Origin: Candidatus Aminicenantales bacterium
GTDB lineage: Bacteria; Acidobacteriota; Aminicenantia; Aminicenantales; UBA8522
DNA: 64,000 bases
Reading direction: 5' to 3'
Assembly: GCA_049682755.1 (NCBI GenBank)
Contig: JBAUIH010000022.1
Coordinates: 4,377 to 68,376, forward strand
In this document: positions 3,364 to 55,274 of the stretch, piece after piece
How positions within the stretch are numbered: position 1 is the first letter of the stretch
Layout of the letters: every line of letters starts with the position of its first letter
Translations under genes and position numbers: made by a program
The notes under the pieces: generated by a model
What the model was told of the DNA's origin: nothing
Seen by the model: only the letters and a program-made list of their open reading frames with translations
Databases searched by the model: none

Positions 3364-3484
3364 TCGCTTCCACTCCTCTCTCTGTCATCATACATGTTCT
3401 CTGTGTCCATTGCATCCATGCCGTTTTGAGTTGACAGAAGCGGTATCATTGGATATAAGATTTTTTACACCCAAAGAAGCTCTT

Positions 3485-38149: not shown

Positions 38150-40099
38150 TTATCCTCCGAGACACGCGTTGATCATTTCGGCGACCTGATTCTGGGTGAG
38201 ATTCTTGACCTGGATGGCCGACCGCAGGCACGTGGCCGTGCAAGTGCCGCAGCCTTCGCAGAGGACCTCGTTGACCTCGACTTTTCCGTCTTTTAAGGAA
38301 AGAGCGTCATAGGGACAGACGGCGACACACATCCCGCAGCCCGTGCAGAGGTTGTTGGTGACGCTGGCCACGGTCGGCGCGTGGAACAATCTCTCCTGAG
38401 AAAGGATAACCACGGCTTTGACGGCGGCACCGCTGGCCTGGGCGACGGCCTCGGGGATATCCTTAGGAGCTTGGGCAGCTCCGGCTAGAAACATGCCGGA
38501 GGTGACGCTTTCCACCGGCCTCAACTTGGGATGGGCCTCGGCCAGAAATCCGTCCTTGTCCATGGCCAGCTTGAATTTCTTGGCCAGTTCCTGGGCGCCC
38601 TTAGAAGGGCGCATGGCCTGGGCCAAAACGACCATGTCGGCGTCGATCTCGATAGGCTTGCCGGTCAAAGTGTCCACCCCCCAAACGACGATCTTGCCCT
38701 TGTCTTCGAAGATCTTGGAGACCTTGCCGCGGAGATAGACAACGCCATCTTCCTCGACGGTCCGCTGGACGAATTCTTCATATCCTTTTCCGCCGGAGCG
38801 GATGTCGATATAAAAGACATAGGCCTGGCCGTCATGAACGTGGTGCTTGTAGAGCATGGCGTGTTTGGCCGTGTACATGCAACAGATCTTTGAGCAGTAA
38901 GCACAGTGATTCTCCGGATCTCGCGATCCGGAGCACTGGATGAAGACGACTTCTTTGGGTTCCTTGTGATCGGACGGCCGGAGGATCTTGCCCATGGTGG
39001 GACCGGAGGCCGAGAGGAGCCGTTCGAACTGGAGGCCGTCCAGGACATCGGCGTATCTGCCGAAGCCGTATTCGGCCATGTTTTCCTTCTCATAGAGGTC
39101 AAAGCCAGTGGCGACGATGATGGCCCCCACTTCTTCCTCGATGACCTCGGGCTTCTGGTCGTAATTGATGGCCTTGGGCTTGCAGACATCGGCGCACTTG
39201 CCGCAGGCGATGGTGGTGGAGATGTCTGGACAATTTTTGTCGTCGAGAGTATAGGACGCCGGAATAGCCTGGGGGAAGGGGATATAGATCGCCCGCCTTC
39301 CCGTCAGACCGAGGTCGAACTCGTTGGGCACGACGATCGGGCAGACCTTGGTGCATTCGTCGCAGAGCGTGCACTTGGCCGGATCGACATAGGTGGGTTT
39401 CTTCAAGATCTTGACCTTGAAGTTGCCGACATAGCCGGTGACGTCCTGAACCTCGCTATAGGTCATCAGCTTGATTTTGGGATGCTTGGACACCTCGACC
39501 ATTTTTGGTGTCAGAATACACTGAGAGCAGTCGAGGGTGGGGAAAGTCTCCGACAGCTGGATCATGTGGCCGCCGATGGAGGGGCTCCTCTCGACCAGGA
39601 TCACTTCGAAACCGCTGTTGGCCAGGTCGAGAGCGGCCTGAATGCCGGAAATCCCTCCGCCGACGACGAGGGCCCTCCGGGTCACAGGGACGCTCAGGGG
39701 TTCCAGCGATTCGTTCTGGCGGACCTTTTCGACCGCGGAATGAGCGATCTTGGTGGCCTTCCGGGTGGCCCGGGGCTTGTCCTTATGGACCCAGCTGCAC
39801 TGTTCGCGGATATTGGCGATCTCGCAACGGAAACTGTTGATGCCGGCGCGGTTGGCGGCGTTGCGGAAGGTCGTTTCATGGAGGTTAGGAGAGCAGCAGG
39901 CGACGACGACGCTGTCCAGTTTTTTCTCCTTGATAGCCTGCTCGATCAGGTTTTGGCCGGGGTCCGAGCACATATAAACATAGTCCTCGGAGTGGACCAC
40001 CCCCGGGTGTTTGGCCAGCTCCTCGGCGACCTTCTTCACATCCACCGTGCCGGCGATGTTGATGCCGCAGTGGCAGACAAAGACTCCGGTCCGTTTCAT
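38150..40099 (-). CDS. hdrA: Heterodisulfide reductase subunit A (FAD, multiple FeS)
   Basis: Begins VFVCHCGINIAG. Dinucleotide-binding motif VVGGGISGIQAA. Several CxxCxxCxxxC clusters. About 650 aa. Confidence 0.85.
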   Translation of the reverse strand: MKRTGVFVCHCGINIAGTVDVKKVAEELAKHPGVVHSEDYVYMCSDPGQNLIEQAIKEKKLDSVVVACCSPNLHETTFRNAANRAGINSFRCEIANIREQCSWVHKDKPRATRKATKIAHSAVEKVRQNESLEPLSVPVTRRALVVGGGISGIQAALDLANSGFEVILVERSPSIGGHMIQLSETFPTLDCSQCILTPKMVEVSKHPKIKLMTYSEVQDVTGYVGNFKVKILKKPTYVDPAKCTLCDECTKVCPIVVPNEFDLGLTGRRAIYIPFPQAIPASYTLDDKNCPDISTTIACGKCADVCKPKAINYDQKPEVIEEEVGAIIVATGFDLYEKENMAEYGFGRYADVLDGLQFERLLSASGPTMGKILRPSDHKEPKEVVFIQCSGSRDPENHCAYCSKICCMYTAKHAMLYKHHVHDGQAYVFYIDIRSGGKGYEEFVQRTVEEDGVVYLRGKVSKIFEDKGKIVVWGVDTLTGKPIEIDADMVVLAQAMRPSKGAQELAKKFKLAMDKDGFLAEAHPKLRPVESVTSGMFLAGAAQAPKDIPEAVAQASGAAVKAVVILSQERLFHAPTVASVTNNLCTGCGMCVAVCPYDALSLKDGKVEVNEVLCEGCGTCTATCLRSAIQVKNLTQNQVAEMINACLGG

Positions 40100-40728
40100 G
40101 ATTTTGCCTTTCGGGGAGCGCTCTTCTTGGGTTTGGAGACCGGCGGCTTTTCGTCCGGCTTGATCATTGTGGGAGGTTTTTCCTTTTCCTTGGCTAACAG
40201 CTCGATCCCATAGTCATAGCCCTTATCAAAAGCCCTGATATTGAGCTCAAGAAACCTCTTGGGGACGAGGCCGGGGAGGGCCTTTTTCATGGCCTCCGGG
40301 CTGACCAACTTGGTGATGGCGGTGAAGAATCCGAGCATGACCAGGTTGCCGAAGATGCGGTTGCCCATCTCCTCGGCGAAGCGGGTCGAAGGAACGCCAA
40401 AATACTTGATCTCGTCCCGCACGGGCTTGGGTTTCACCAGGTCGGTGTCATAGATGAGCGTTCCGTCGCCGCGGAGATCCGGCTCGTATTTCTCATAGGC
40501 ATCCTGAGACATGGAAACGAGAATTTCCGGCCGGGTGATGTAGGGATAAAGGACGCGCTCCTCCGAGATCACCAACTGGGAACTGCAGGCGCTTCCTCTC
40601 GCTTCCGGTCCGAAGCTCTGGGTCATGGTTCCGAACTTATTATCAAAGAGAGAAACGGCCTTGCCGGTGATCAAACCGCAGCGGATAATTCCCTGGCCGC
40701 CGTAACCCGAAAAACGGATCTCGCTCAT
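40096..40728 (-). CDS. 2-oxoacid:ferredoxin oxidoreductase gamma subunit with Lys/Pro-rich C-terminal tail
   Basis: Begins FSGYGGQGIIRCG, typical of POR/KOR gamma. The C-terminal tail is KEKEKPPTMIKPDEKPPVSKPKKSAPRKAKS. Confidence 0.75.
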   Translation of the reverse strand: MSEIRFSGYGGQGIIRCGLITGKAVSLFDNKFGTMTQSFGPEARGSACSSQLVISEERVLYPYITRPEILVSMSQDAYEKYEPDLRGDGTLIYDTDLVKPKPVRDEIKYFGVPSTRFAEEMGNRIFGNLVMLGFFTAITKLVSPEAMKKALPGLVPKRFLELNIRAFDKGYDYGIELLAKEKEKPPTMIKPDEKPPVSKPKKSAPRKAKS

Positions 40729-41594
40729 GGTTTCACTCCGTAGGGGACATATTTTTCGCCCAGGGCCTTCTGGAGATGGGCGTTCATGCAGTCAAGAAAT
40801 GTTGGCTTTTCCTTGTCCACGAACTTGCCGACGATGAGCTTGCCTTGATATTCGATGCCCACGGTACGTGTATCGGCGCCGTGCTGAATTTCAGATTGGT
40901 CATAATAGTACTTGAGCAGATTCAAGCCGTCGCCCAGCCGGTTCCGCCGGGCATACAGTGTGACACAAGGAGTGATGACCTCGATGAAAGAGAAGCCTCG
41001 CTTGGCCAGCGCCTCCTGGATGGATTTGGTGACCCTCCGGATATGGAGGGATGTCCAGCGCGCCACGTAGGTGGCGCCGCAGGTTTCGACTAAGTAGGGC
41101 AGGTTGAAGGGGTATTCGAAGTTCCCGTAGGGCGCCGTAGAAAGATTGGCACCGAGCGGAGATGTGGCGGCCACCTGTCCTCCTGTCATGGCGTAGTTGA
41201 AGTTGTTCACGCAGATGACCACGATGTCCATGTTCCGTCGGGCGGCGTGAATGAGATGGTTGCCGCCGATCCCGACGATGTCTCCGTCGCCGCTGAAGAC
41301 CACGACCTTGAGCTCCGGATTGGCCAACTTGAGCCCGGTGGCGAAGGGGATGGCCCGGCCGTGGGTGGTGTGGAAGGAGTCGAACTTGACATAGCCCGCC
41401 ACCCGCCCCGTGCAACCGATGCCGGAGACAACGGCGACCTTGTCGAGGTCGAGTTCACTTTTTTTAAGGGCATCGGCGAACGAAGTGACCACCGTGCCGA
41501 TGCCACAGCCCGGGCACCAGATGTGCGGAATCCGGTCCATTCGGAGGAAATCCTCCATCGGGTTTTTTTCTTCGGCGAGTTCCTCGCGGTTCAT
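40725..41594 (-). CDS. 2-oxoacid:ferredoxin oxidoreductase beta subunit (TPP-binding)
   Basis: WCPGCGIG region and TPP motif GDGD. Confidence 0.85.
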   Translation of the reverse strand: MNREELAEEKNPMEDFLRMDRIPHIWCPGCGIGTVVTSFADALKKSELDLDKVAVVSGIGCTGRVAGYVKFDSFHTTHGRAIPFATGLKLANPELKVVVFSGDGDIVGIGGNHLIHAARRNMDIVVICVNNFNYAMTGGQVAATSPLGANLSTAPYGNFEYPFNLPYLVETCGATYVARWTSLHIRRVTKSIQEALAKRGFSFIEVITPCVTLYARRNRLGDGLNLLKYYYDQSEIQHGADTRTVGIEYQGKLIVGKFVDKEKPTFLDCMNAHLQKALGEKYVPYGVKP

Positions 41595-42757
41595 CGGACG
41601 GCCTCCTTAATGGCTTTCAAGATATCTTCGGGATCGTGGACCCAACCCCCGCAATGAGTAACGCCGATAACCGGCGCTTGGCCGAAAGCGCAACGCTCGA
41701 CCTCGCGTCCGATCTGGCCGAGGTTGAGCTCGGGCACGACAAAAGCCTTGATTTTCCCGGCCAGCTCTTTGATTCTTTTTTCGGGGAACGGCCAGACCGT
41801 GATCAACCGTATCGTGCCGACCCTGATGCCGGCTTCGCGGGCGAGCCGGACCGCCCTGATAGCCACCCTGGAGGTGATTCCGTAGGAAATGACCACGACC
41901 TCGGCATTGTCGATCTGGTCTTCCTGCAACTCAATGATCTTATGGGCGTTCTTCCGGATCTTGTCAACGAGATGATGAACGCACCAGTCCTGGACCTCGG
42001 CATTGAGCACCGGATAGCCGCGTTCATCATGGGTGAGTCCGGTGGTGTGGAAGCGGTAGCCGTCTCCCGGCTTGACCATGAAGGGGACCAGGTCCTTGTC
42101 CGGCTTGTAGGGCAGGTACTTGTCCTTCGGCCCCTGATACCACTTCCGCTCGACCACTTCGATCTGGTCGGCCGGCGGAATGACCACTTTCTCGTGCATG
42201 TGGCCGACGCATTCGTCGGTCATGATAAACACCGGAACCCGATAAAGCTCCGCAAGATTGAAGGCCTTGATGGTCAGGTCGAAACACTCCTGAGGAGAAT
42301 CCGGGGAAAGGGCGATGATCTCGTAGTCGCCGTGAGAACCGAATTTCGCCTGCATCATGTCTCCTTGACCGGCCAGAGTGGGGAGACCGGTGGAGGGCCC
42401 GCCCCTCTGGACATTGGCGATCACGAGGGGGGTCTCCATCATCACGGCGAGGCCGATGTTTTCCATCATCAAGGAGAAGCCCGGGCCTGAGGTCACCGTC
42501 ATGGCTTTCTGACCTCCCCAGGAGGCGCCGATCAGAGCGGTTATCGAGGCGAGTTCGTCCTCCATCTGGATGAAAACCCCCCCGACCAAAGGGATCCTCT
42601 CAGAGAAGCGCTCAGCTGTTTCGGTAGAAGGGGTAATCGGGTATCCGCCAAAAAAGCGGCAGCCGGCAGCCAGCCCGCCCTCGGCGATGGCGAAGTCTCC
42701 ATCGAGATAATGGGACCCGGTCAGAACTCCTTTAGGGTCTGCTTTCACTTTTCTCAC
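41591..42757 (-). CDS. 2-oxoacid:ferredoxin oxidoreductase alpha subunit
   Basis: Region [24 protein letters not shown], typical of OFOR alpha. Confidence 0.85.
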
Positions 42758-43010
42758 CTTCTTCCTCCTCTTTTTTGAGAGTGACGAAAATCGCGAACTC
42801 CGGGCAGATGGCTTCGCAGAGCTGGCAGTAAATGCACTCGTTTTCTTTTACGACCCGGGGGGGGTGGTAACCCTTTTTGTTGAATTCCTCGGAGAGCTCG
42901 AGGACATCGCGAGGACAGTACTCGACGCAAAAGCCGCAGCCCTTGCACCTTTCCTTATGGATGTGGATATTGCCTTTTTTGGCTCTGAGATTGCCGAAAC
43001 GGATGGTCAT
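42732..43010 (-). CDS. 2-oxoacid:ferredoxin oxidoreductase delta subunit (2x[4Fe-4S] ferredoxin)
   Basis: Two ferredoxin motifs, [12 protein letters not shown] and [12 protein letters not shown]. 92 aa. Confidence 0.75.
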
Positions 43011-43017
43011 GGTTCCC

Positions 43018-43896
43018 TCAGATCAGGCCCTTTTCTTCAAGAAGCGGCCTGGGATTGACATAGTGGAGATCAAGACGAAGGTCTTTCTCTTCGCAGCCCA
43101 AGGCAATGGCCAGAAGCTGGGTGAAATAGAGGATCGGGAGACCCTTGAATCCGGAATACTTCTCGGCCGTTTGCTTTTGTCGGAAATCCAGGTTGAAAGC
43201 GCAGAGGGGGCAGCTGACCGAGACCACCTCGGCGCCGCGGTTCTGCGCGGACGTCAGAATACTGTAGGTCCGCTCAACGACATTCTCCGGTTTGTCGACC
43301 GTCTGATAGGCCCCGCAACATTCCGTCTTATAGGGAAAATCGACCGCTTCCGCCCCGAGGACGACCGCCAGGTCGTCGAGGACGGTCGGGTTCTCCATGT
43401 CGTCCAGGCCGATTTCTTTGGGGCGGACGAGGAGACAACCGTAATAACTGGCCACTTTGAGATTGCGAAGGGGCTTTTTGACTTTCTTGCCGATCGTCTC
43501 GAACGAGACATCCTCCCGGAGCAACTCCAGCAGGTGCCGGACCTTCACATCCCCCTGATAGGCGATCTTTTCCTCGTCCATGAATTTATGGATCTTCTCC
43601 AGGCTCTCCGGATCGGCCTTGATCCGTTCGTTGACCCGCTTGAGGGTGTTGTAGCACATCGCGCAGAGGGTTATGACCGAGTCCGCCTGTTCTTCCTTGA
43701 CCCGAATCAGGTTGCGGACGGAGGCGAGATGGCGCATCAGGTCGTCCGTGGTCAGAGAGTAGACGGTTCCGCAGCAGTTCCAGCGTGAGAGTTCCTTGAC
43801 GTCGACCCCCAGCTCGCGCAGCGCACAGAGAGCGGAGTCCTCAAAATTTTTGGCGTTGCTCTTAAGAGTGCACCCTGGATAATAGCTGACTTTCAT
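43018..43896 (-). CDS. hdrB: Heterodisulfide reductase subunit B (two CCG domains)
   Basis: Begins [13 protein letters not shown]. Cysteine patterns CCG...C repeated twice (NCCGTVY...CAMCY; ECCGAYQ...CPLCAFN). Confidence 0.8.
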
Positions 43897-43954
43897 GGGA
43901 ATCCCTTCTTCGGATGAGGTCGGATGATCGACGCATCATTTATGATCGAAATTA

Positions 43955-44362
43955 TCAAGACGTGAATTTCCGGAAATTGCTGATCAGGGCGATGGCCGGG
44001 ACGGAAGCCTTTTCCTCGTTGCTGAGTTTGGACACCTCGACATGGTCCTTTCTCTTGCGGAGCAGGACCTGGCGGACCGCTTCCATGACCTCGGCAATCT
44101 TGATCCCCTTGGGACAGCGCACGTTGCAGGTATAGCAGGACGCGCAGACCCAGACCGACTTGGATTCGAGGAGCTCGTCTTTGAGGCCGAGCTGGGCGTA
44201 GCGGATAACCTGGTTAGGGAGGATGTCCATGTCACCGACGGCCGGGCAGCCGGCCGAGCACTTGCCGCACTGGTAGCAGGCCGAGAGCTTCTGGCCGCTG
44301 ATCTCTTCGATCTTCTTCACAAAATCATCGCGGATTGTGTTCCTGGAGATGTTCGTTCTCAT
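43955..44362 (-). CDS. hdrC: Heterodisulfide reductase subunit C (2x[4Fe-4S])
   Basis: Motifs CYQCGKCSAGCP and CASCYTCNVRCP. First gene of the operon. Confidence 0.75.
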   Translation of the reverse strand: MRTNISRNTIRDDFVKKIEEISGQKLSACYQCGKCSAGCPAVGDMDILPNQVIRYAQLGLKDELLESKSVWVCASCYTCNVRCPKGIKIAEVMEAVRQVLLRKRKDHVEVSKLSNEEKASVPAIALISNFRKFTS

Positions 44363-44445: not shown

Positions 44446-44467
44446 ATAATTTTCTTCACCTGTCAAG
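44446..44467. promoter_or_regulatory. 22-bp near-perfect palindrome TTTTCTTCAC-CT-GTCAAGAAAA upstream of hdrC, containing a TTGACA hexamer on the coding-orientation strand
   Basis: The inverted repeat (9 of 10 arm positions pair) was read directly. It lies 85-105 nt upstream of the hdrC start and overlaps the stop of the alpha/beta hydrolase gene. Confidence 0.3.
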
Positions 44468-45259
44468 AAAATGAGGCGACGGCTCGCCGTTGAAGAAAAG
44501 GATGATTTCCTGAATGTCTTCCTGGGGAAATCGGTTCCGGAAATAGTCCTCTGTTACCTCTAAAGGATAATGATCGATGCCGACGAGGACAACCTTCAAG
44601 CGCTCGACGTTCTCCTCAAAAAGCTTCAGCAGGGGGCCGTTCTTGACGGTCCTGTCCGAGTGGCTGAGGATCAGGACGTGGGGCCGCTTATGGAAGCGGC
44701 AGGTCCGGCGCTCGCTGAGGATGATCCGGGCGGTCTCGAAAAACGTTCGTCCTTCCATCTGGCTCAGCAGGGTATCGATCCGTTCCGCGGGATAATCACT
44801 GTACCAGTGAAAGACACGATGAAAAAAACGATGGTTCCAGACCTTCGTCGATAGATCAAAGACCAGCGCCAGGCGGACGAGAAAGGCGTAGGTCGATTTC
44901 TTGATCGGTCCCAGGTTGAGCCAACGTGAGCTGAGATAAGGTGTAATGGCGACAACCCCATGGCAGCGTTCATCGGGGGGGAGATGAGAGATAACGGCGA
45001 ACCCGAAGGATATGCCGCCCAGAAGGTAGCTCTCCAACCCGAGATCATCAATCCGGCGCCGGACATAGCCGGCGTAGTTTTCCAGGGAGACTTCGGTCAG
45101 AGGCGGGATATGATTGATGAAGCCGGGGAGGTCGACGAAATGGACCTGGAAAAAACGCCCCAAGTAGTCGATCAGCCCTCTCAAGACCAGGCTATTCGTC
45201 AAGAACGCGTTGACCAGAACAAGGTTGTCTTTATGGCATGGAGTTGAATGAGGCCTCAT
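44456..45259 (-). CDS. Alpha/beta-hydrolase fold protein
   Basis: The likely start is ATG 45259 (MRPHSTPCHKDNLVLVNAF...), with core LLGGISFGFA. The listed ORF runs on to 45535. Confidence 0.45.
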   Translation of the reverse strand: MRPHSTPCHKDNLVLVNAFLTNSLVLRGLIDYLGRFFQVHFVDLPGFINHIPPLTEVSLENYAGYVRRRIDDLGLESYLLGGISFGFAVISHLPPDERCHGVVAITPYLSSRWLNLGPIKKSTYAFLVRLALVFDLSTKVWNHRFFHRVFHWYSDYPAERIDTLLSQMEGRTFFETARIILSERRTCRFHKRPHVLILSHSDRTVKNGPLLKLFEENVERLKVVLVGIDHYPLEVTEDYFRNRFPQEDIQEIILFFNGEPSPHFLDR

Positions 45260-45297
45260 GAAAAGGCCCCATTTATTAACATAGCGGGCGGGCGAAG

Positions 45298-47442
45298 TCA
45301 ACTGGAATCGCGGGCGCATTTCGGCCGGGCCAGCAGAAAAAGGAGACAGATCGCGTTCAGGACGATCACCGATTCGAGGACATGGGCTTGGCCTGCCAAG
45401 GGAATGAGCAGGGAGGATGTCAGTAACGCGCCGGCGAAGGACCCGATGAGGTCGAAGCCGTAGCCGCGCCCGTAATCCGCTCTGGTCCGAAGAAAAATCA
45501 AATTGGAAACGACAAAAAGACGACCACCCAGGCAACCGAACAACAGCAGGAGAAGATAGGCAAGGAATTCCGGAGGATGAGTTGGGAGGAGAAGCCGGAA
45601 TGTGCCCAGCAGGGCCAGAAAGGAGGCTTGGACGGCAGCCAGCCGGCCGAAGGTTGTGTTTTCGGGCCGGGATTTGAACAAAGCTCCGAGGAAAAGGCCG
45701 AGCATGAAAGTGGAAAGCAGGAGCGCCACGCGTCCATAGAGATAGCCGTACAGGGACTGGAACCAGACGAGGAGGACGATCTCAGCGACGATCGTGGTCA
45801 GGCCCATCACGGCCAGAGGAATCAAGCTGAAACTCGTCTCTTTTTTTTTCGCCCAAAGAACCGCGAGGAAAAGAGAGAAAAGGAGGAGCGGACACCCGAG
45901 AAGCCAGACCGGCGGCAGCCCGGACAAGATCCGCATGATCGTGCCCTCCGGTCCCCGGAAATGTGTGCTCCAGAGGGATGCCTGAAGGAAAAAACTGATA
46001 GGAGTGAGATCCGTGTTGATCCGGCGGGGGCCTGAGGCGAGCATTTCATTCAGGTATTCGATCCGGAGCGGGTGAAGGCGGGATTCGAGGGATCTGGTTT
46101 CGAGGTGTCGGACGGACAGTCCGAAATCGGCGATCCGGCGGCTCAGTTCCGCGGGATCGATAGTCAGGCTGTTCGAGGAGGCCAAAAAAATGTTCCGGCT
46201 TCCCGGCACAACCTTGACCTCGCGGAAAACATGCGTCAGCGTGGAATATAAAGAAGAGAGCAGCTTTCTGAGTTCCGGACCGATGACGTTCTCAGAGGAG
46301 GTTGCCGAGAAGGAAAAAACGCCGTCGGAGCGAAGATGTCTCCTGGCCAGATCGAAGAATTCCCGGGTGTAGAACCTGTTGATCTGGGCCGTGGCCGGTT
46401 CCGGAAGGTTGAGGATGATGACCTCGTATTCATCGCTGGATCTTTTGAGAAAGGCTCTCCCGTCCTGGGAGAAGATCCGGACTCTTGCCGAGGTGAGAAT
46501 GTCCCGTCTTGTGTCGCCCAGGAATCGGCTGGACATCCGGATGATCTCGGGGTCGAGTTCGACGGCGTCAACCCGGACATCGGGATACTTCAAAACCTCC
46601 TCGAGCGCCTGGCTCTCGCTTCCTCCGATGAGAAGGACGTGGCGGGCTGTTGGATTCTGGAGCATGGCAAAATGCACGGATTCTTCGGCGGAGGCGATGT
46701 CGGGATAAGAGAAAACGGGTGAATTGTTGCTGTAGAGGCTGATCTGTTCCCGAGTCTTGACAACTTGGAGCCGGCCATAGAGGGAATCACGGCTGGCGAG
46801 GAGCCGGAAGGGCTGCCAGTGGAGTCTTTGAACCGGTAGGTCGGCCAGGCCGAATCCGGCCAGCGCAACGAATAAAGTTGCGGTCCAGATCAGGGAAGGC
46901 CGGCGCTCGCCCGAGCAATACACCAGGAGGAAGACCAGCCCACTGACCGCCGCTGCCGCGACCCACGAGGAGGCAAAAAGAATCAAGCCGATATAAACCG
47001 CCGGGCCTGCCGCCACGGCTCCCCAGGATTCCCATATATAAACACGTTTGATATCGCCGTTCTGATGGTTGACATTGACGACAAACAGGGCCCCGAGGGG
47101 AAAGCCGACCAGGGCACAAATCCCGAAGGATATCAGGATAACCGGAAGCAAGCCTACGAGTTCTCCGGGCAAGAGCCGAAAAAGCAAACGCGAGAGCCTG
47201 ACGGCCGTGAGCGCGAGGGGAAAGGCAAGGATAATAAAGAAATAGACCACGGTCAGGTCGGGTAACGACCGCATTCTTCCCGCCGTCAGGCTGCCCAGCC
47301 CGCTCCAGAGGAGCCAGGAGGCCAGCACGATGCCGAAGGTCAGTTCGTTGCCGTAAAAATAGGCGTTGAATTCGCGAAGGAGGAAGATCTGGAGAGAGGT
47401 GGCCAGAAGGCCAAGAGAAAAAGCGGGGAGGTTTTTTCTCAA
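45298..47442 (-). CDS. Polytopic membrane protein with embedded spermidine-synthase-like (aminopropyltransferase-fold) domain
   Basis: TM helices at both ends. Central domain VLLIGGSESQALEEVLKYPDVRVDAVELDPEIIRMSSRFL...YEVIILNLPEPATAQINRFYTREFF resembles SpeE. The likely start is a TTG/CTG near 47442-47448 overlapping the radical SAM stop (TTGA). The listed ORF extends to 47817. Confidence 0.55.
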   Translation of the reverse strand: MRKNLPAFSLGLLATSLQIFLLREFNAYFYGNELTFGIVLASWLLWSGLGSLTAGRMRSLPDLTVVYFFIILAFPLALTAVRLSRLLFRLLPGELVGLLPVILISFGICALVGFPLGALFVVNVNHQNGDIKRVYIWESWGAVAAGPAVYIGLILFASSWVAAAAVSGLVFLLVYCSGERRPSLIWTATLFVALAGFGLADLPVQRLHWQPFRLLASRDSLYGRLQVVKTREQISLYSNNSPVFSYPDIASAEESVHFAMLQNPTARHVLLIGGSESQALEEVLKYPDVRVDAVELDPEIIRMSSRFLGDTRRDILTSARVRIFSQDGRAFLKRSSDEYEVIILNLPEPATAQINRFYTREFFDLARRHLRSDGVFSFSATSSENVIGPELRKLLSSLYSTLTHVFREVKVVPGSRNIFLASSNSLTIDPAELSRRIADFGLSVRHLETRSLESRLHPLRIEYLNEMLASGPRRINTDLTPISFFLQASLWSTHFRGPEGTIMRILSGLPPVWLLGCPLLLFSLFLAVLWAKKKETSFSLIPLAVMGLTTIVAEIVLLVWFQSLYGYLYGRVALLLSTFMLGLFLGALFKSRPENTTFGRLAAVQASFLALLGTFRLLLPTHPPEFLAYLLLLLFGCLGGRLFVVSNLIFLRTRADYGRGYGFDLIGSFAGALLTSSLLIPLAGQAHVLESVIVLNAICLLFLLARPKCARDSS

Positions 47443-48560
47443 GCCCAGATTCCGGGTATGGGATTGCGGCAAAACCGGCAGGCCCCCTTTTCCAAATGGA
47501 CACTTTTGAGCTGGAGTCCGAACCGTTCGATGATCGTTTTCCCGCAGCGGGGGCACTCTGTGTTCTCCGCCTCGTGCCCGGGGACATTGCCGATATAGAC
47601 ATAGTGAAGCCCCTCCCGGATGGCGACGGCGCGGAGGGCCTCGAGCGTTGAAATAGGAGTGGGCGGAAGGTTTTTCATCAGGTACATGGGCTGAAAGCGG
47701 CTGAAGTGAAGGGGAACATCGGGGCCGATCTCCCGCCTCATCCAGCGGCACATGGCTTCGATATCCTTGACGCTGTCGTTGAGCGTCGGAATGACGAGAT
47801 AAACGATCTCCAGCCAAATCTTGCTGCTCTGCACTTCCCGGATGGCGTCGAGCACGGGCTGGAGCTCACCCCGGACGTAAGCGGTGTAAAAATCCTGGCG
47901 GAAGGCCTTGAGGTCGATCTTGACGGCATCGACGACCTTGAGGAGATCCCGGAGCGGCTCGGGCCGGATATGGCCGCCCGTCACCACGCAGTTCTTGATC
48001 CCTTTTTGGCGTGCCGCCAAAGAAGAATCATACATGTATTCGAAAAAGACGACAGGTTCGGTGTAGGTATAAGCGATCGAGGCGCAGCGGTATTTCAGAG
48101 CGGCCGCGGCCACGCCTTCGGGAGGAAGGTCGAAATGCGGAATCTGCTCGGGACGGGCCTGGGAAATCTGCCAGTTCTGGCAGAACTTGCAGTTCAGGTT
48201 GCAGCCGGCCGTGGCGATCGAAAAAGCGTCGCTGCCCGGCAAAACATGGAAGAACGGCTTCTTCTCGATCGGATCAACATTGGCCGAGCAGGCTTTGCCA
48301 TAGACAAGAGTGTAGTAGGTTCCGCCGTCGTTCTGCCGGACCCCGCAGTAGCCCCTCTCTTTGTCTCCGAGCTTGCAAAGCCGGGGGCAAAGGAAACACT
48401 CGATCTCCCGGTCGGGGAGTTTCCTGTAATACCGGGCTTCGACATGAGAGAGATTGGCGACATCCTGGAAGGACAGGAACCGTCCGAAAGCTCCCCTTCC
48501 GCCTGTTCCCAGGAGCAATCCCGTCCCCGCCAGAGATTGACAGAACATCCGTCGTTTCAT
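47439..48560 (-). CDS. AmmeMemoRadiSam-type (PflA-like) radical SAM enzyme with Tat-like N-terminal leader
   Basis: CX3CX2C motif (AGCNLNCKFCQNW). Family-typical N-terminal cluster CFLCPRLC...GYCGVRQN with DPIEKKPFFH. C-terminal CPRCG...CRFCRNPIPG. N-terminus MKRRMFCQSLAGTGLLLGTGGRGAFG. Confidence 0.65.
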   Translation of the reverse strand: MKRRMFCQSLAGTGLLLGTGGRGAFGRFLSFQDVANLSHVEARYYRKLPDREIECFLCPRLCKLGDKERGYCGVRQNDGGTYYTLVYGKACSANVDPIEKKPFFHVLPGSDAFSIATAGCNLNCKFCQNWQISQARPEQIPHFDLPPEGVAAAALKYRCASIAYTYTEPVVFFEYMYDSSLAARQKGIKNCVVTGGHIRPEPLRDLLKVVDAVKIDLKAFRQDFYTAYVRGELQPVLDAIREVQSSKIWLEIVYLVIPTLNDSVKDIEAMCRWMRREIGPDVPLHFSRFQPMYLMKNLPPTPISTLEALRAVAIREGLHYVYIGNVPGHEAENTECPRCGKTIIERFGLQLKSVHLEKGACRFCRNPIPGIWA

Positions 48561-48581
48561 GCCGAGCGCTTCTTCCTCAAA

Positions 48582-49547
48582 TTATATCTCATCCTCGGTG
48601 ATTTGGATGTTTTCAACGCCGGAGCGGCCGAGGCCGATCGCCTCGGCTGCTTTCAGGTAAGTCGGCTGGCGGCCTTCCTCCCGGAGCGAAGGAAGACCCC
48701 GGTTCGACCGCAGCTTTTCCACCAGACGCCAGCCCACCGCGTCGGCGGCCACCGGGTCCAGGCTGAAGATGAGCCGGCCGCAGGGCTCTGCCCAACGGGA
48801 ATGGTAGGACGGACCGCGATGGAACTGGACGAGTAGAGCGTCCAGGATGGAGAGCCGATGTTTCTGCTTCACCAGGGGAGCGTCAAAGAGCTCGGCGATA
48901 TATGGATCGCAGTGATCATCGTGATACTTATTGGGGTTATGGATGGCACCGAAATAGTTTTTCATCCCGGCGGTGATGCCGGCCAGGCCATGGTCCTTGA
49001 GGATCGCCAGGCTGATCGAGGCGGTCACGAAATTTGTCTGAATGGTCGAAAAGAGACTGCCGATATTCAGATGAGAGACAGGCTCGGTCTCGTACCCTGC
49101 TCCGGCGGTGTCGGTCGCGAAAACCTTGAGTCCGTTCGAGCTATCGGAAAGACGATACCCCGCTTCCCTCAGCTCGCGGTTTGTCCTGTCCCAGATGAGG
49201 ATGTTCCTTTCAGAGACGATGCTTCCGGAGAGAAGTCTGGCCAAAGCCAAAGAGAGCTCGGGGCGGGTCGAGATCATGCGCCCGCCGATGGTGCTGATCT
49301 TGATCCCGACGCGGTCCTTTCTGGAAAAAAGCCCGGCCAGGCCGTCCAGCGCCCGATCGGTACCGGTCAGATGCCGGATTCCCAGCTCAAGCATGGCGGC
49401 GATCCTGGTTCCGTCGATCTCTCCGCCCCGGCCGAGCACTCCCATCCCTCTGATCACGACGACCTTGGATCTGTCCATTCTTCTATCAAAGTACATGTCT
49501 CCTGATGAGCTGTCAACCGTGAATCCCCGTCGCCTGAAATTTGCCAA
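48582..49547 (-). CDS. DUF362-family protein
   Basis: Region LKDHGLAGITAGMKNYFGAIHNP resembles DUF362. The start may be an internal Met at about 49478-49496. Confidence 0.5.
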   Translation of the reverse strand: MANFRRRGFTVDSSSGDMYFDRRMDRSKVVVIRGMGVLGRGGEIDGTRIAAMLELGIRHLTGTDRALDGLAGLFSRKDRVGIKISTIGGRMISTRPELSLALARLLSGSIVSERNILIWDRTNRELREAGYRLSDSSNGLKVFATDTAGAGYETEPVSHLNIGSLFSTIQTNFVTASISLAILKDHGLAGITAGMKNYFGAIHNPNKYHDDHCDPYIAELFDAPLVKQKHRLSILDALLVQFHRGPSYHSRWAEPCGRLIFSLDPVAADAVGWRLVEKLRSNRGLPSLREEGRQPTYLKAAEAIGLGRSGVENIQITEDEI

Positions 49548-49568
49548 AGATCCGGCGTTATAGTACAG

Positions 49569-50501
49569 TTGAAACGAATAGAGAAAACGGAGGGCATCAT
49601 GAGCGCAAAGACAGCGAAGCGCGTCATTCTCCTGATCTGGACGCTTTTCTGGTTATGCTCCGCATTCGGGCAGGAGACTTCGCCGCCTTCTCTTCAAACC
49701 CTCCTGCCCAAACTGCCCGGATGGTCTCTTTCCGAGGATCCCCGTGTCTTTTCCCCCGGTTCCCTTTTTGAGTACATCAACGGGGCGGCGGAGAATTATC
49801 TCAGCTATGGTTTTCAAGAACTCTTGGTGGGGGATTACAAGAAGGATGAATCAGCGGCCACTCTGACGGTCGAGATTTATGATATGGGCGAAGGGACCCG
49901 CGCCTTCGGCATCTACAGTTCGGAGCGGTATCCGGAGAGCCGCTTTCTGGGCATCGGGAGCCAGGGGTATCTGGAAGAGGGATCGCTCAACTTTATCGTC
50001 GGCGGCTATTATGTCAAGCTCCTCTGTTTCGACTGCGGGGAAGAGTCCGAGCCCATTCTCAAGTCGGCTGCTGAACAGGTGGAAACTCAAGTTGCAGTCA
50101 AGGCCCAGCTGCCCCCTCTGCTCCGTCTTTTTCCGCGTGAAGGGTTGGTCATCAACAGTGAAAAGTTCATCCTCCAGAATGTCCTCGGGTTCGGATTCCT
50201 CCATCACGGCTACCTGGCCGATTACCGCACTCAGGACCAGGAATTCGGCCTGTTCATTATCCAGGGCACCAGTTCCCAGGAAGCTAAGGATATGCTCGGC
50301 CAATACTTGGAGAGCCAGCGAAAGGCGGGCCAGCCTCCCCAGACAATGTCCGATGGTTATTTGGTCAGAGACCGCTATTCCCACAATGTTTTCCTGGCGC
50401 TTTCAGGGAACTTGATTCTCGGGGTGATGAGAATCAAGGACGGACATGAGGAACTGGGCAAAAAATACCTTCAGCGGCTTGTTCAGGCTGTGACCAGCTG
50501 A
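49569..50501 (+). CDS. Secreted hypothetical protein
   Basis: Signal peptide (AKRVILLIWTLFWLCSAFGQ). No recognisable domain. Divergent from the DUF362 gene. Confidence 0.35.
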   Translation: MKRIEKTEGIMSAKTAKRVILLIWTLFWLCSAFGQETSPPSLQTLLPKLPGWSLSEDPRVFSPGSLFEYINGAAENYLSYGFQELLVGDYKKDESAATLTVEIYDMGEGTRAFGIYSSERYPESRFLGIGSQGYLEEGSLNFIVGGYYVKLLCFDCGEESEPILKSAAEQVETQVAVKAQLPPLLRLFPREGLVINSEKFILQNVLGFGFLHHGYLADYRTQDQEFGLFIIQGTSSQEAKDMLGQYLESQRKAGQPPQTMSDGYLVRDRYSHNVFLALSGNLILGVMRIKDGHEELGKKYLQRLVQAVTS

Positions 50502-50591: not shown

Positions 50592-50966
50592 CTAGGCCTG
50601 CTTTCCCGGCGGGTGCATCTCCAGAAACGCCTTCAACCTCTGGAACTCAGGTCCCAGGGCGCCGATCGCTTCCCGGGCTCTATCCAAGTTTTTCTCCCCC
50701 CCGGCCGTTTCGATGGCCAGTCCGAGCTTTTGGAGCGGGATGAGGCTGAGGTTTGCCGAGGCCCCCTTGAGGCTGTGTCCAACTTCCTGAATCTGAGTGG
50801 AATCTCCCCGGGAGAGGGCCTTTTCAAGGAGTTCCTTTTTTTCATCGAATTCATGAAAATAGAGGTTGAGGAGGTCCTGGAGAAACGAGGTGTCCCCGCC
50901 GATTCTGTCAAGAACGGCTGAAAAATCAATGGGTTGATCGGCTTCAAGTTGGATGGTCTCAGACAT
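50592..50966 (-). CDS. Hpt (histidine phosphotransfer) domain protein
   Basis: The HSLKGASANL motif contains the phospho-accepting His. The start MSETIQLE at 50966 is preceded by AGGAG and overlaps the receiver-GGDEF stop. Confidence 0.6.
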   Translation of the reverse strand: MSETIQLEADQPIDFSAVLDRIGGDTSFLQDLLNLYFHEFDEKKELLEKALSRGDSTQIQEVGHSLKGASANLSLIPLQKLGLAIETAGGEKNLDRAREAIGALGPEFQRLKAFLEMHPPGKQA

Positions 50967-51900
50967 GGTTACGCTCCTGACTCCGACTGGATATGCCATT
51001 GGCCACGATATGGCAGTTGCGTCCCTGGCGTTTGGCCTTAAGCAACGCCTCATCGGCGACCTTGATGAATTTCTCGGCGCTGAGAATCCCGGCGACGTCC
51101 GTGGAGGCGCAGCCGGCGGAGATGGTCAGGAGGACCTTGTCCAGATCTTTTTTGATCCCCTTCTTAGCGACGGACTGGCGGAGCCGTTCGGCGACCTTGA
51201 TGATCTTCGAAGAACTGCAGCGAGGAAGGATGATCATGATCTCGTCCCCGCCGTAGCGCCCGATTTTGTCGGATTTCCTGATTTTCCTTTTGATTCTGGA
51301 AACCACCTGGAGGAGAGCCTGATCTCCGATATCGTGACCGTAAAAATCATTGATCCTTTTGAAATGGTCGATATCCAGCAGGATCACTCCCGTAGGCACC
51401 CCTTCTCTCTTGCCCCGGTCCAGTTCTTCTGTCAGGAACTTGGTGGTCTCGCTGCGGTTCCAGATTTTCGTCAGGCCGTCCCGGCTGGCGATATCTTTGA
51501 GCTGTCTCTGGACGGCAAGCAATTTGTCTTCGAGATCGATAATCCGTCTTCCTGTCTGGAGGCGGGCCCGCAGCTCCAGGAAGTCGACGGGTTTGGTCAT
51601 GTAATCATCTGCCCCGGAGGAAAGCCCGGTGATGATATCCTGCCTGCGGTCCTTGGCGCTGAGAATGATGATATATGTATACTTGTATTTCTTGCGGCGG
51701 CGGATCTTGCGGCAGACCTCGATCCCGTCTATTCCCGGCATCATCCAGTCCAGAAGCGCCATGCGGAGTTCTTGGTCCTGCAGCGCTTCCCAGGCTTCGG
51801 CTCCGCTACGCGCGGTGACGACGAGGTAGCCCCAGTTCAGCAGGTTTTTCTGCAGAATTTTCGAGCTGATAAGGTCGTCTTCGGCGATCAGGATTTTCAT
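50959..51900 (-). CDS. Response regulator with receiver and GGDEF (diguanylate cyclase) domains
   Basis: Receiver region KILIAEDD...[16 protein letters not shown] active site [13 protein letters not shown] overlap with the histidine kinase gene. Confidence 0.85.
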
Positions 51901-54900
51901 GGGCTTCCCCGCTCCGGTTTCTTTCTAAGCTCTTTTCCGGGCGTGGATTCCGCCGACGGACTCGCAGACGGCTCGCCGGGCACTGAGTACCGGCCCATCG
52001 TTAGAGAGATCGTCTCTGCAAGCTGCTTGGCGTTGAGCGGCTTGGTGATATATTCGTCCATCCCGACCTCCAGGCATCTTTCCCGGTCTCCTTTCATTGC
52101 GTGGGCGGTCATGGCGATGATCGGGATGTGGGTTCCGGCTGCTTTTTCCTTGACCCTGATTTCCTGGGTGGCCTTGAGCCCATCCATTTTCGGCATCTGC
52201 ACATCCATCAGGATGAGCTCGAAGTTCCCCTTCTCCAGGGCGTTCAGGGCTTCTTCTCCGTTCATCACCCCCGTCGCCTGATGACCCTGCTTTTCAAGCA
52301 TATAGAGGGCCACCTTCTGGTTGACCAGGTTGTCCTCGGCAATCAGGACGCGATAGGTTTGCCGGCTTGGAGCGGGCGTCGCCTCTGAGCCAGAGATCGT
52401 CTGCATCTCGGGCTTGGCTGACATCCCGAGGACAGAGAGCATGGCGCTCCTGAGCTCAGACGGCTTGATCGGTTTTCCCAGGTGTGAGGAGATGCCCACC
52501 TTGAGCCAGGGAGCGGCATCGATCCGGTTGCCGGTTTTGCTCATCATCATGATGATGGATTTGGAGATCTCTGGGTTGTCCTTGAGATAATCCAGCATGA
52601 TAAAACTGTCGTGCCCGGGGAGGTTGGCGTCGAGGAGAATGAGCTCGAAGGGCCTGTTTCTCTCTTTGGCAGCGTCCAGGATGATTGTGGCCTCGTCGGC
52701 GCTTTCCGCTTCTTTGACCGTGATCCCCCAGCGAGCGGCCCATTCGCCGAGAGTGCGCCGGGAACTCGCGTTGTCCTCAATCAGGAGCATGGGGAGGTTG
52801 CTGAACATGGCTTTGGACGCGGCGAGCGCCGCCCTGCTTTTTTCCTGGGGAGATGTGAACAGGGCGGTGAAATGGAATTGGCTGCCTTGCCCGACCTTGC
52901 TCTCGACCCAGATCCGACCGCCGAGCAATTCGACGAGCTGCAGGGAAATGGCCAGCCCGAGGCCGGAGCCGCCGTATTTTCTGGTCATCGAGCTGTCGGC
53001 CTGGGCAAAAACGTCGAAAATGAGCCTCCTTTTGTCTTCGGGAATACCAATCCCGGTGTCGGCGATAATGAAGTGAAACAGGAGGGCATCGTTCGATCTC
53101 GCTTCTTCTTGGACGGAGACGACCACCTCGCCTTTTTCAGTAAACTTGATGGCGTTGCTGACCAGGTTGATCAGGATCTGGCGAAGCCGGCCGGGATCGC
53201 CGAGGAGGTTCAATTCCAGGTGTGGAGGAATGGAGCAGACAAGATCGAGCCTGTTTCGGTGCGCCTGAATGGCCAGGGGAGCCAGGATTTCGTAGATGAG
53301 ATCTTCCAGGTTGAACGGCGTCGTCTCGATCTCCACCTTGCGGGCCTCGATCTTCGAGAAATCGAGGATATCATTGATCAGGGTCATCATGGATTCGGCC
53401 GAGGACTTGATTCCCCGGAGGTATTCCCGCTGTTCCGGTGTCAGCTCCGTATCGAGAGCCAGCTCGGTCATGCCCAGAATGCCGTTCATCGGTGTCCGGA
53501 TCTCATGACTGATATTGGCCAGGAAGTCGCTCTTGGCCTGGCTGGCCTCCAGCGCCTCTTTGCGGATCCTGACAAGCTCCGATACATCCACCAAGTTGAA
53601 GATCAGTCCGCGGTACCGGTCGTCTTTGTAAACGGGCTTGATGCGGAAGATAATCTCCTTGTTCTCCATCGTCTTCTGGATTTCGACCGGTGCCGCCGGC
53701 GGCGTCTGGCGAAATTTCTCAACAGAGGCCTTCAACTCAGGTTGGGCATCGCCGGGCAAGGCGTCCCACAGGGTTTGTCCCAGCAGCTGAGATTTCTCCT
53801 GCCCGAAGAAGCGGAGGAAATAATCATTGACCTCGATGATGCGGTCCTCGTCATCGGCGAAAATGACGCCTTCCTCGATGCCCGAGATGATGGCGGTCAG
53901 TTTATCGGATTCTTTTTTGATCGCCTCTTCCGCCCGTTTTCTGTTCAAAACCTCGACGAAGGCCGTGGCCAGGGCCTCAACGGCCTTCTGGTCGTCGCGA
54001 TCATATCCTCCATCCTTGTTGGCCAGGGCCATGACACCGAAAACCCTGCCCGAGTGCCTCAAGGGGACAACGAGAAGGTTCCGAATCTCGGGATGGCCGG
54101 CGGGAATCCCCACTTGGGCCGGATGGATTCTGGGGTTGTTGATCAGATGGGATCGTTCCTCCTTGAGGGCTTCCGCCCAGAGGCCCCGGATCTTCATGTT
54201 CTTGAGCAGAACAGGAGTCCGGGATTTGGGAATGGTGCAGGCATCCCATCCGGGATCGCTCAGCGAAAGAACGTCCAAGAGCCCAGAGTCGTTGAACTCC
54301 CCGATGAAACCGAACTGGCTGTCGGTGAGGTTTTCCGCGAGATGGAGGCACGAATCGGCGATTTTAGAATCGGGTTCGTCGCTGAAGGCCTTTTGAAGAA
54401 GTCTGTTGATGGCTTCCAGCAACATGTTCTGCTTCAGGATTTGTGTTTCGGCAAAGCGTCTTTCGGTGATATCCTTATCCATGCCTCGGTATCCGCGGAG
54501 CTGGTTCGCATCATCCAGGATGGGAAGAGCGTTCGTCTGGAGGCAGACGAGTTTTCCCTGCTTGCTCAAGTTCCAGTTCACCATGTCGACAAGGGGCTGT
54601 TTATCCAGGCAGAGCTGATGAAAGATCTGGCGGACCCGGGCGGCCTCGTTCTTGGGCATGAGGTCGAAAGGCGACTTACCGATGATCTCCTCGGCTTCAT
54701 AACCCAAGATCTGTTTGACCTGGCCCGAAGCAAAGGTATAGACTCCGTTATGGTTGACTTCCCAGATCCAGTCCGCGGAGCTCATGGCAATATCCTGAAA
54801 TCTTTTTTCGGAGGTCCTCAGGCTCTCCAGTATCCTTTTCTGGTCGGAAATATCGCGATAGATCCCGAAGATGGCTTCCACCTTGCCGTCCTCGACGATC

Positions 54901-55274
54901 GGTGAGGCAATGATCGAGACGGGCACGGCCCTCCCGTCCTTGCGGAGCCGGACGGATTCAAAAGCGGTTTTTTCTCCATTGACGACCCGGTGCGTGATCG
55001 AGGCGGCGGAACCGGCTTCTTCCGCGGGCACAATCAGGTTGTCGAGGACTTGACCGATGGTCTCATCAGGTTGGAAGCCGAAGATCCTGCAGAATTCGTC
55101 GTTCGCCCGGAGAATGCGCCCGTCCTTGTCGGCGATGATGATCCCCTCGGGCGCATTCTTGAAAAGGCTTTCGAAATAGGTCTTCTGGCGGAGAAACTGT
55201 TCCTGGAGCCCGTCTTCGTTCCCGGCGAATCCGGACTTGCCGGGCGTTTCCGGGTCGGTTTTCGGATGCGGCAT
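51897..55274 (-). CDS. Hybrid sensor histidine kinase (multiple PAS/GAF, HisKA, HATPase, two receiver domains)
   Basis: H-box [14 protein letters not shown]. ATPase G-box [10 protein letters not shown]. Two C-terminal receiver domains (LIEDN..., LIAEDN...DVQMPKMDG). 1125 aa. Confidence 0.85.

Follow-up and report, generated by a model that had tools for sequence, protein, structure and literature searches.

The AmmeMemoRadiSam system consists of three proteins: an AMMECR1-type protein (TIGR04335, protein A), a Memo-type protein (TIGR04336, protein B) and a radical S-adenosylmethionine (SAM) enzyme (TIGR04337). Conservation of AMMECR1 and MEMO1 extends from bacteria to humans, in whom they have been associated with disease, and we know of no agreed biochemical function for the eukaryotic proteins, nor of any chemistry assigned to the bacterial three-gene system. 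Our literature searches met the name AmmeMemoRadiSam, but turned up no paper that deals with its function, and none that treats the export of radical SAM enzymes, the DUF6599 family or a combination of AMMECR1 with spermidine synthase. "Memo-Ammecr1 systems" have been described by Burroughs et al. 2019, as cited in a passage of PMC7159879. Here we analyze a locus within 64,000 nucleotides of a Candidatus Aminicenantales bacterium (contig JBAUIH010000022.1 of assembly GCA_049682755.1, positions 4,377 to 68,376; hereafter the window), in which a gene for an AmrS-family radical SAM enzyme lies with genes for a DUF362 protein, a DUF6599 protein and SpeM, a name coined here for a membrane protein of 14 transmembrane (TM) helices with a spermidine-synthase fold. 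The locus is very probably a reduced form, lacking Memo and AMMECR1, of an extended conserved AmmeMemoRadiSam module. With the known triad it shares a radical SAM enzyme that passes TIGR04337; unlike the triad, the Aminicenantes enzyme carries a twin-arginine (Tat)-type signal and its conserved partners are DUF362, SpeM and DUF6599.

The radical SAM enzyme is encoded on the minus strand at 47439..48560 and is 373 aa long. Its assignment to the AmrS type, which an earlier sequence-only reading of this DNA had made from the arrangement of cysteines, is borne out by the family model: TIGR04337, whose cut-off is 220 bits, aligns with residues 42–372 at 373.7 bits, and PF04055, the radical SAM domain, is found with E = 3e-17. 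The CX3CX2C motif (C120/C124/C127) is invariant in the enzyme alignments, and two extra groups of four cysteines are present in the window enzyme, C55/C58/C62/C72 in the N-terminal part and C336/C339/C361/C364 in the C-terminal part. Its best 120 homologues are 66–89% identical and nearly all full-length, and those with a named source come nearly all from Aminicenantes. Among solved structures the AlphaFold2 model (pLDDT 78) comes nearest in fold to PFL-activating enzyme (3c8f; E = 1e-12, TM-score on target 0.79), and the nearest sequence in the PDB is also PFL-activating enzyme (E = 5e-7). The glycyl-radical activases, whose fold is similar, have proteins as substrates, and by analogy a protein or other macromolecular partner is the probable target of the radical SAM enzyme. 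Unlike the activases, however, the window enzyme has the two extra four-cysteine groups and the Tat-type signal at its N-terminus, and its gene has no glycyl-radical enzyme gene nearby. The glycyl-radical activase models remain below their cut-offs (TIGR02493, 61.8 against 231.75; TIGR02494, 46.1 against 174.35).

The neighbors of this gene are well conserved within Aminicenantes. The comparison set consisted of ten loci (the window, L001–L005 and L083–L086), with flanks of ±10 kb around the radical SAM gene, less at contig ends, for the nine loci other than the window. In all ten, a DUF6599 gene is divergent from a set of DUF362, radical SAM and SpeM genes, with the identity of the radical SAM enzyme going down to 65% and that of SpeM down to 50%. 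The adjacency of the last three genes is thus not incidental. The sequence-only reading had seen neither AMMECR1 nor Memo here, and this is also what we found: Pfam scans of ten unassigned open reading frames (ORFs) and tblastn with the Memo and AMMECR1 parts of fusion proteins, which gave nothing below E = 0.06, detected neither gene in the 64 kb, and none lies within the fetched flanks of the nine other loci, so that the cassette which defines AmmeMemoRadiSam is absent around the radical SAM gene in 10/10 Aminicenantes loci. When a Memo-AMMECR1 fusion of Thermoanaerobaculia was used as the query, the best 120 matches were all Acidobacteriota-like and none was named as Aminicenantes.

Outside Aminicenantes the same partners are found together with Memo and AMMECR1. 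When GTDB species genomes were scanned with an alignment of nine radical SAM enzyme sequences, 80 loci were obtained, which represent over 20 named phyla or candidate divisions and whose enzymes are 43–68% identical to that of the window; counts out of 83 loci include the window, L001 and L002 as well. Partners were counted by clustering all ORFs of the loci and with a profile hidden Markov model of SpeM. The full SpeM architecture (7 TM, SpeE-like domain, 7 TM) adjoins the radical SAM gene in 47 of the 83 loci, spread over 16 named phyla, and its placement varies: downstream on the same strand in 18 loci (seven with an overlap of 3–4 nt), upstream on the same strand in eight, and convergent in 21. 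Because the adjacency survives such rearrangement, we argue that SpeM and the radical SAM enzyme are functionally linked. A fusion of Memo and AMMECR1 (~500 aa; PF01875 plus PF01871), annotated in the sources as "AmmeMemoRadiSam system protein B/A", is present in 37/83 loci, and 24 loci contain both SpeM and the fusion. When the analysis is confined to the 34 loci that extend 6 kb or more to each side, 32 have at least one of SpeM, the fusion, DUF362, a NapH-like or DsbD_2 protein, and DUF6599. Radical SAM genes of other phyla that lie beside the same DUF362, SpeM and DUF6599 genes are homologous to that of the window, with 43–59% identity. In a rough neighbor-joining tree the Aminicenantes clade falls inside a group characterized by Tat-type signals and DUF362, other members of which have the Memo-AMMECR1 fusion, while the sister branch of Aminicenantes, composed of Zixibacteria and L019, is also without a fusion nearby. 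It is because the same partners sit beside Memo-AMMECR1 in other phyla that we regard the window as a reduced AmmeMemoRadiSam neighborhood.

SpeM is encoded at 45298..47442 on the minus strand. As described in the earlier reading, it starts at a TTG (47442) that overlaps the TGA stop of the radical SAM gene (47441-47439). This start gives a protein of 714 aa, the same length as a 100% identical NCBI protein (P0121) from a metagenome-assembled genome (MAG) of Candidatus Aminicenantales and also the commonest length among SpeM homologues. SpeM matches PF01564 (E = 8e-25, 88 bits). With 44.7 bits it also exceeds the cut-off of 40 set for NF037959, "fused MFS/spermidine synthase", a name that NCBI gives to several of the homologues. 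The AlphaFold2 model (pLDDT 87.4, pTM 0.86) consists of seven helices, a complete spermidine-synthase fold and seven more helices. The N-terminal module (residues 5–199, 46846..47430) contains helices at 5–28, 33–56, 63–87, 98–126, 131–155, 159–177 and 184–199, and the C-terminal module (residues 511–704, 45331..45912) contains those at 511–532, 535–565, 568–588, 598–618, 625–653, 657–683 and 685–704. The domain between them (residues 213–470, 46033..46806) resembles Thermus thermophilus SpeE 1uir in Foldseek (E = 1.4e-13, TM-score on target 0.74) and 3anx/1uir in phmmer (E = 2.5e-20 to 4.3e-20), and shares with SpeE the complete fold including the N-terminal beta-hairpin domain. The two seven-helix modules are weakly alike (hhalign E = 0.03, 27% identity over 136 columns), which suggests, at the level of sequence, an internal duplication around the soluble domain. 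In one Aminicenantes-like MAG (L005:9703-13333) SpeM is spread over three overlapping ORFs, either by frameshifts from assembly errors or as a pseudogene.

The orientation of SpeM in the membrane, overlooked in the earlier reading, can be predicted from its charges. Lys plus Arg residues per protein number 21.1 in the loops on the side of the N- and C-termini and 3.1 on the side of the soluble domain among 45 homologues; among 37 full-length SpeM proteins from many phyla the values are 16.3 and 2.8, and the bias holds in 37/37. By the positive-inside rule the spermidine-synthase-like domain is therefore predicted to be periplasmic. We also considered a cytoplasmic SpeE domain in the central loop of a major facilitator superfamily (MFS) protein, and rejected it because neither the 7+7 helix count nor the charge bias agrees with it; NF037959 is a family defined by annotation, and the 7+7 TM helices of SpeM with an outward insert look unlike the classical 6+6 arrangement of the MFS.

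SpeM retains the nucleotide-binding motifs GxGxG, VELDP and DGR. Compared with T. thermophilus SpeE, however, the catalytic Asp of D-x-x-D-P is replaced by Asn in the SpeM family, giving N-L-P-[DE]-P in most of the 37 members aligned. Most of the 37 likewise read GGGxGG, with A, V, I or L in place of the acidic residue by which GGG[DE]G selects decarboxylated SAM (dcSAM). A motif specific to the SpeM family, TAQxNRFYTxEFF, comes after N-L-P-[DE]-P. The SpeM of the window reads ILNLPEP and GGSES, so that the Asp is lost but a Glu stands at the position aligned with the Glu of GGGEG; its residues 273–278 (46609-46626) are GGSESQ, and the consensus of 45 Aminicenantes homologues is GGGAGG. The SpeE equivalog models score far below their cut-offs (TIGR00417, 75.5 against 249.55; NF002010, 98.8 against 260; NF002956, 126.3 against 472), and with the lost catalytic Asp this indicates that SpeM is not a canonical aminopropyltransferase. 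Its domain differs from SpeE also in sitting between two 7-TM modules and in its predicted periplasmic location. The idea of aminopropyl transfer put forward in the sequence-only reading therefore finds the catalytic residue of spermidine synthases changed throughout the family.

These results bear on another account of the locus, in which the adjacency would be inherited synteny without function and SpeM a membrane-bound polyamine aminopropyltransferase of the usual sort. SpeM does match PF01564 and several SpeE models, and the closest homologues come mostly from one lineage, as such an account expects. On the other hand, the linkage is kept in the 16 phyla despite changing order and orientation, the start and stop codons of the two genes overlap, the equivalog scores are as low as stated, and the family has lost the catalytic Asp and the dcSAM-selecting residue, even if the window keeps a Glu at the latter. 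We consider this account very improbable.

The DUF362 protein (48582..49478, minus strand; 298 aa) matches PF04015 with E = 2e-17 and 64.1 bits, above the gathering score of 24. Its likely start is the ATG at 49478, homologous gene calls in L001 and L002 being 298 and 299 aa, and its stop at 48582 leaves the 21 nt before the ATG of the radical SAM gene that had been read earlier. In 26/83 loci the radical SAM gene is directly preceded by a DUF362 gene of the same orientation. The 25 adjacent copies that we aligned share invariant H163, N181-P182-N183-K184, H186, D213, D241, D246 and R257 and have no conserved Cys, so that, as far as sequence can tell, their conserved residues suggest a site for a cofactor or a metal and not for an Fe-S (iron-sulfur) cluster. 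DUF362 and the LarA/DUF2088 superfamily of nickel-pincer racemases share the Pfam clan CL0471 (PMC11770544), and within the clan DUF362 is related to the N-terminal domain of LarA. The window DUF362 differs from the LarA superfamily in having no match to Lar_N or LarA_C. In one acidobacterial locus (L026:11080-12399) a true LarA homologue with both Lar_N and LarA_C is encoded directly downstream of the radical SAM gene, beside DUF362.

The gene that diverges from the operon (49599..50501, plus strand; 300 aa), which the sequence-only reading had described as coding for a secreted protein of no assigned function, belongs to DUF6599 (PF20244, E = 3e-49, 167.5 bits against a gathering score of 27). 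Its ATG is preceded by GGAGGG, and the predicted secretion agrees with the signal-like hydrophobic segment seen in its N-terminus, MSAKTAKRVILLIWTLFWLCSAFG. DUF6599 is next to DUF362 in 10/10 Aminicenantes loci and is co-directional in five more, of which four are from Acidobacteriota (L007, L013, L016 and L024) and one is unclassified (L015). By length-filtered ORF clusters DUF6599 is found in 9/83 loci, and a less strict listing gives all six Aminicenantes loci of this set and those five. Searches of PDB sequences with DUF362 and DUF6599 gave no useful match.

The sequence-only reading had proposed that an orphan AmrS-type enzyme serves, with DUF362, a membrane transferase and a hydrolase, in a new four-enzyme pathway that is independent of AMMECR1 and Memo and acts on a membrane or exported substrate. 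The absence of AMMECR1 and Memo from the window and the nine other flanks, the tight coupling of the DUF362, radical SAM and SpeM genes and the fusion-free Zixibacteria/L019 branch are all consistent with such a pathway. However, the alpha/beta-hydrolase-like gene (44456..45259, minus strand; 267 aa, a likely gene) is present only in the window and its closest relative L001, that is, in 2/10 Aminicenantes loci, and is missing from L002, L083, L084, L085 and L086; it is for this reason that we place it outside the conserved module. The SpeM member lacks the aminopropyltransferase catalytic Asp. Moreover, SpeM and the fusion coexist in the 24 loci of other phyla, the Aminicenantes clade nests within a clade having Tat-type signals and DUF362 with fusion-carrying members, and Memo and AMMECR1 could still be encoded elsewhere in the Aminicenantes genome. 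An orphan pathway of this kind is thus unlikely. The AmrS type, the locus free of AMMECR1 and Memo and the conserved linkage stand from the earlier interpretation, while the orphan and unrecognized combination (the same DUF362, SpeM and DUF6599 are paired with the fusion elsewhere), the membership of the hydrolase and aminopropyl transfer do not.

We turn to the N-terminus of the radical SAM enzyme, which by its sequence is a conserved, putative Tat-type export signal, another feature overlooked in the earlier reading. Residues 1–34 (MKRRMFCQSLAGTGLLLGTGGRGAFG..., 48459..48560, minus strand) are unstructured in the AlphaFold2 model (pLDDT <50), and the N-terminus, MKRRMFCQSLAGTGLLLGTGG, contains Arg-Arg followed by a moderately hydrophobic stretch, as in Tat signals. 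R3 and R4 are invariant in 39/39 aligned Aminicenantes orthologues, and are present in 27/27 sequences of a set that had been selected for a Tat-like N-terminus; ten homologues read whole show N-terminal motifs such as MKRRDFFK, MQRRDFFR and MNRRQFFK. The Tat signal model TIGR01409 (cut-off 16.7) is passed by two orthologues, P0078 and P0102, and by a more distant homologue, P0241, with 18.5–18.8 bits. Among the 83 radical SAM proteins, 62 have an RR/KR Tat-like N-terminus, 14 a hydrophobic one without RR, and seven no extension.

Export signals are also seen on the partners. A hydrophobic stretch like that of a signal peptide opens 27 of the 28 complete Memo-AMMECR1 fusions; in the locus of the single exception the radical SAM enzyme, too, is without an extension. 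DUF362 partners outside Aminicenantes have mostly Tat-type N-termini of the form RRxF (12–15 bits in TIGR01409, below the cut-off); the copies without RRxF are those of Aminicenantes, L006 (Zixibacteria) and L015. We know of no Fe-S motif in the Memo-AMMECR1 partner. A Tat-type signal on the Fe-S enzyme together with a Sec-type signal on this partner is the pattern expected of real export.

The wider family shows further links to extracytoplasmic modules. The best 150 cluster representatives include 33 with Tat-type N-termini and 13 with large N-terminal fusions, the latter to DsbD_2, to FMN_bind with or without Fer4_5 (NosR/NapH-like), to a signal plus beta-propeller or to a signal plus CBM_11; representatives, all outside the window, are P0245, P0247, P0248–P0250, P0258, P0259, P0274 and P0276. 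In several fusions no TM helix separates the extracytoplasmic-type domain from the radical SAM domain. P0276 is a triple fusion of Memo, AMMECR1 and radical SAM domains that starts with a signal-like hydrophobic segment. Genes for NapH-like or DsbD_2 membrane electron conduits are present in 21/83 loci. The likeness to the NosR/NapH and DsbD/CcdA conduits thus consists in relatives of the radical SAM enzyme that are fused to, or lie beside, FMN_bind+Fer4_5 and DsbD_2 modules.

Taking these observations together, we lean slightly toward an explanation in which the locus is a conserved Aminicenantes module whose Tat-exported AmrS-type enzyme works with SpeM at the outer face of the membrane; that the enzyme acts outside the cytoplasm is, as a statement of its own, rather more probable than its opposite. 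The enzyme would acquire its Fe-S clusters in the cytoplasm, be exported through Tat in the folded state and then, docked on SpeM, act at the outer side of the cytoplasmic membrane. The periplasmic Rossmann domain of SpeM may bind SAM or a SAM-derived ligand, and the membrane modules may deliver the bound ligand or a membrane-bound substrate; that SpeM supplies SAM, however, seems doubtful to us. The partner acted upon would be Memo-AMMECR1 where this is present, and possibly DUF362 or DUF6599 in Aminicenantes. Since the Tat signal that DUF362 bears in other phyla is missing here, DUF362 may, as a pure inference, be carried along and co-exported with the radical SAM enzyme. Such an arrangement would recall the Tat-exported Fe-S proteins with signal-less "hitchhikers" (hydrogenase small and large subunits, DmsAB), in which a cofactor protein likewise carries the RR signal; a further likeness is that the adjacent partner, DUF362, bears a Tat motif in only some of the lineages. 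Across the whole family, the proteins would be the first radical SAM enzymes outside the cytoplasm, exported by Tat, receiving electrons through NapH-, DsbD- or FMN-type modules in some lineages and SAM supplied or held by SpeM; this we regard as tentative, its chances being somewhat less than even.

Several points weigh against export. We know of no radical SAM enzyme that works outside the cytoplasm or is a Tat substrate, and of no SAM pool or low-potential reductant in the periplasm. The evidence on localization consists of sequence rules and models, the whole analysis being computational. TIGR01409 gives no match on the window enzyme itself, whose N-terminus (KRRMFCQ) is less typical; the window DUF362 has no signal; no membrane electron-conduit gene is present in the window or the other Aminicenantes loci; and SpeM was not found in 36/83 loci, some of which are truncated contigs. 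The 14 relatives with a Sec-like rather than Tat-like N-terminus are difficult since the Sec pathway cannot export a holo Fe-S protein. In the seven without an extension (L040, L048, L056, L066, L070, L074 and L077) stop codons lie just upstream, and for two of them, L048 and L074, the export model leaves unexplained why the neighboring Memo-AMMECR1 fusion does have a signal peptide.

Some of these points, namely the 14 relatives with Sec-like N-termini, the seven without an extension and the lack of a TIGR01409 match in the window enzyme, would be accommodated if the system were cytoplasmic or worked at the inner face of the membrane, with the N-terminal segments serving as anchors or docking peptides (the 14 N-termini above may equally be called anchor-like) and the partners, Memo-AMMECR1 and DUF362, being modified before their export, much as anaerobic sulfatase-maturing enzymes modify periplasmic sulfatases before export. 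SAM and reductants are, after all, cytoplasmic. Yet the RR pair is invariant in the orthologues, two of which pass TIGR01409 together with one more distant homologue, and some homologues have the radical SAM domain behind an extracytoplasmic-type domain with no TM helix between. The SAM-fold domain of SpeM, predicted outside in 37/37 proteins, and the Tat motif that the partner DUF362 itself carries also argue for the outer side, and we judge this alternative improbable.

As for the remaining features, all five ORFs of the locus were found where the earlier reading had placed them. The gaps within the operon are 21 nt, an overlap and 38 nt, leaving no room for a small peptide gene, which was ruled out. 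The divergent intergenic region between DUF362 and DUF6599 (49479..49598, ~120 bp) presumably bears promoters; a scan for promoters and terminators gave nothing above the shuffled background, its single weak sigma-70-like match (49541-49569, plus strand) not exceeding shuffled expectation. What follows the module differs among the Aminicenantes loci: the hydrolase and then an Hdr/Kor block, this block directly, an aminotransferase, a GAF-HD protein or a peptidase. The window hydrolase stays just under the Pfam cut-offs (Abhydrolase_6, 24.3 against 26.3; Abhydrolase_1, 22 against 25.8 bits), and its orthologue in L001 is listed with PF12697. In the window the Hdr/Kor block (38150-44362, minus strand) contains genes for HdrC-like and HdrB-like (CCG) proteins, a KorD/A/B/G 2-oxoacid:ferredoxin oxidoreductase and an HdrA-like protein. 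The block comes after the module in the window, L001, L002, L085 and L086 and is missing there in L083 and L084, and it was for now rejected as a part of the module. Judged from gene content, the hydrolase and the Hdr/Kor block are neighbors by local synteny only.

On the other side, beyond DUF6599, the window encodes an Hpt protein, a GGDEF response regulator and a 1125-aa multi-PAS/GAF hybrid histidine kinase (50592-55274, minus strand), and the same trio lies at this position in L001 and L083. Farther away are a DUF1846 protein (3257-5002, E = 5e-166) and a YhhN-family membrane protein (1912-2595), both unrelated.

Extended gene contexts of Memo, AMMECR1 and radical SAM genes are reportedly the subject of the 2019 work of Burroughs et al. 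Part of the SpeM/DUF362/DUF6599 neighborhood may thus already be in print. Should the reading of an exported radical SAM enzyme prove true, it would be of a new kind. For an uncharacterized system, our analysis provides leads in a fourth partner, SpeM, in DUF362, DUF6599 and the NapH-like/DsbD_2 conduits, in coherent export signals, and in a natural variant that has no Memo or AMMECR1 in the cluster. Should the localization fail, the locus would still be a well-defined and testable minimal version of the system. Should it hold, it would overturn the view that radical SAM chemistry takes place in the cytoplasm only, one would have to ask by what route SAM and electrons get to the periplasm, and the whole AmmeMemoRadiSam system would, in these bacteria, act on a substrate of the cell envelope.

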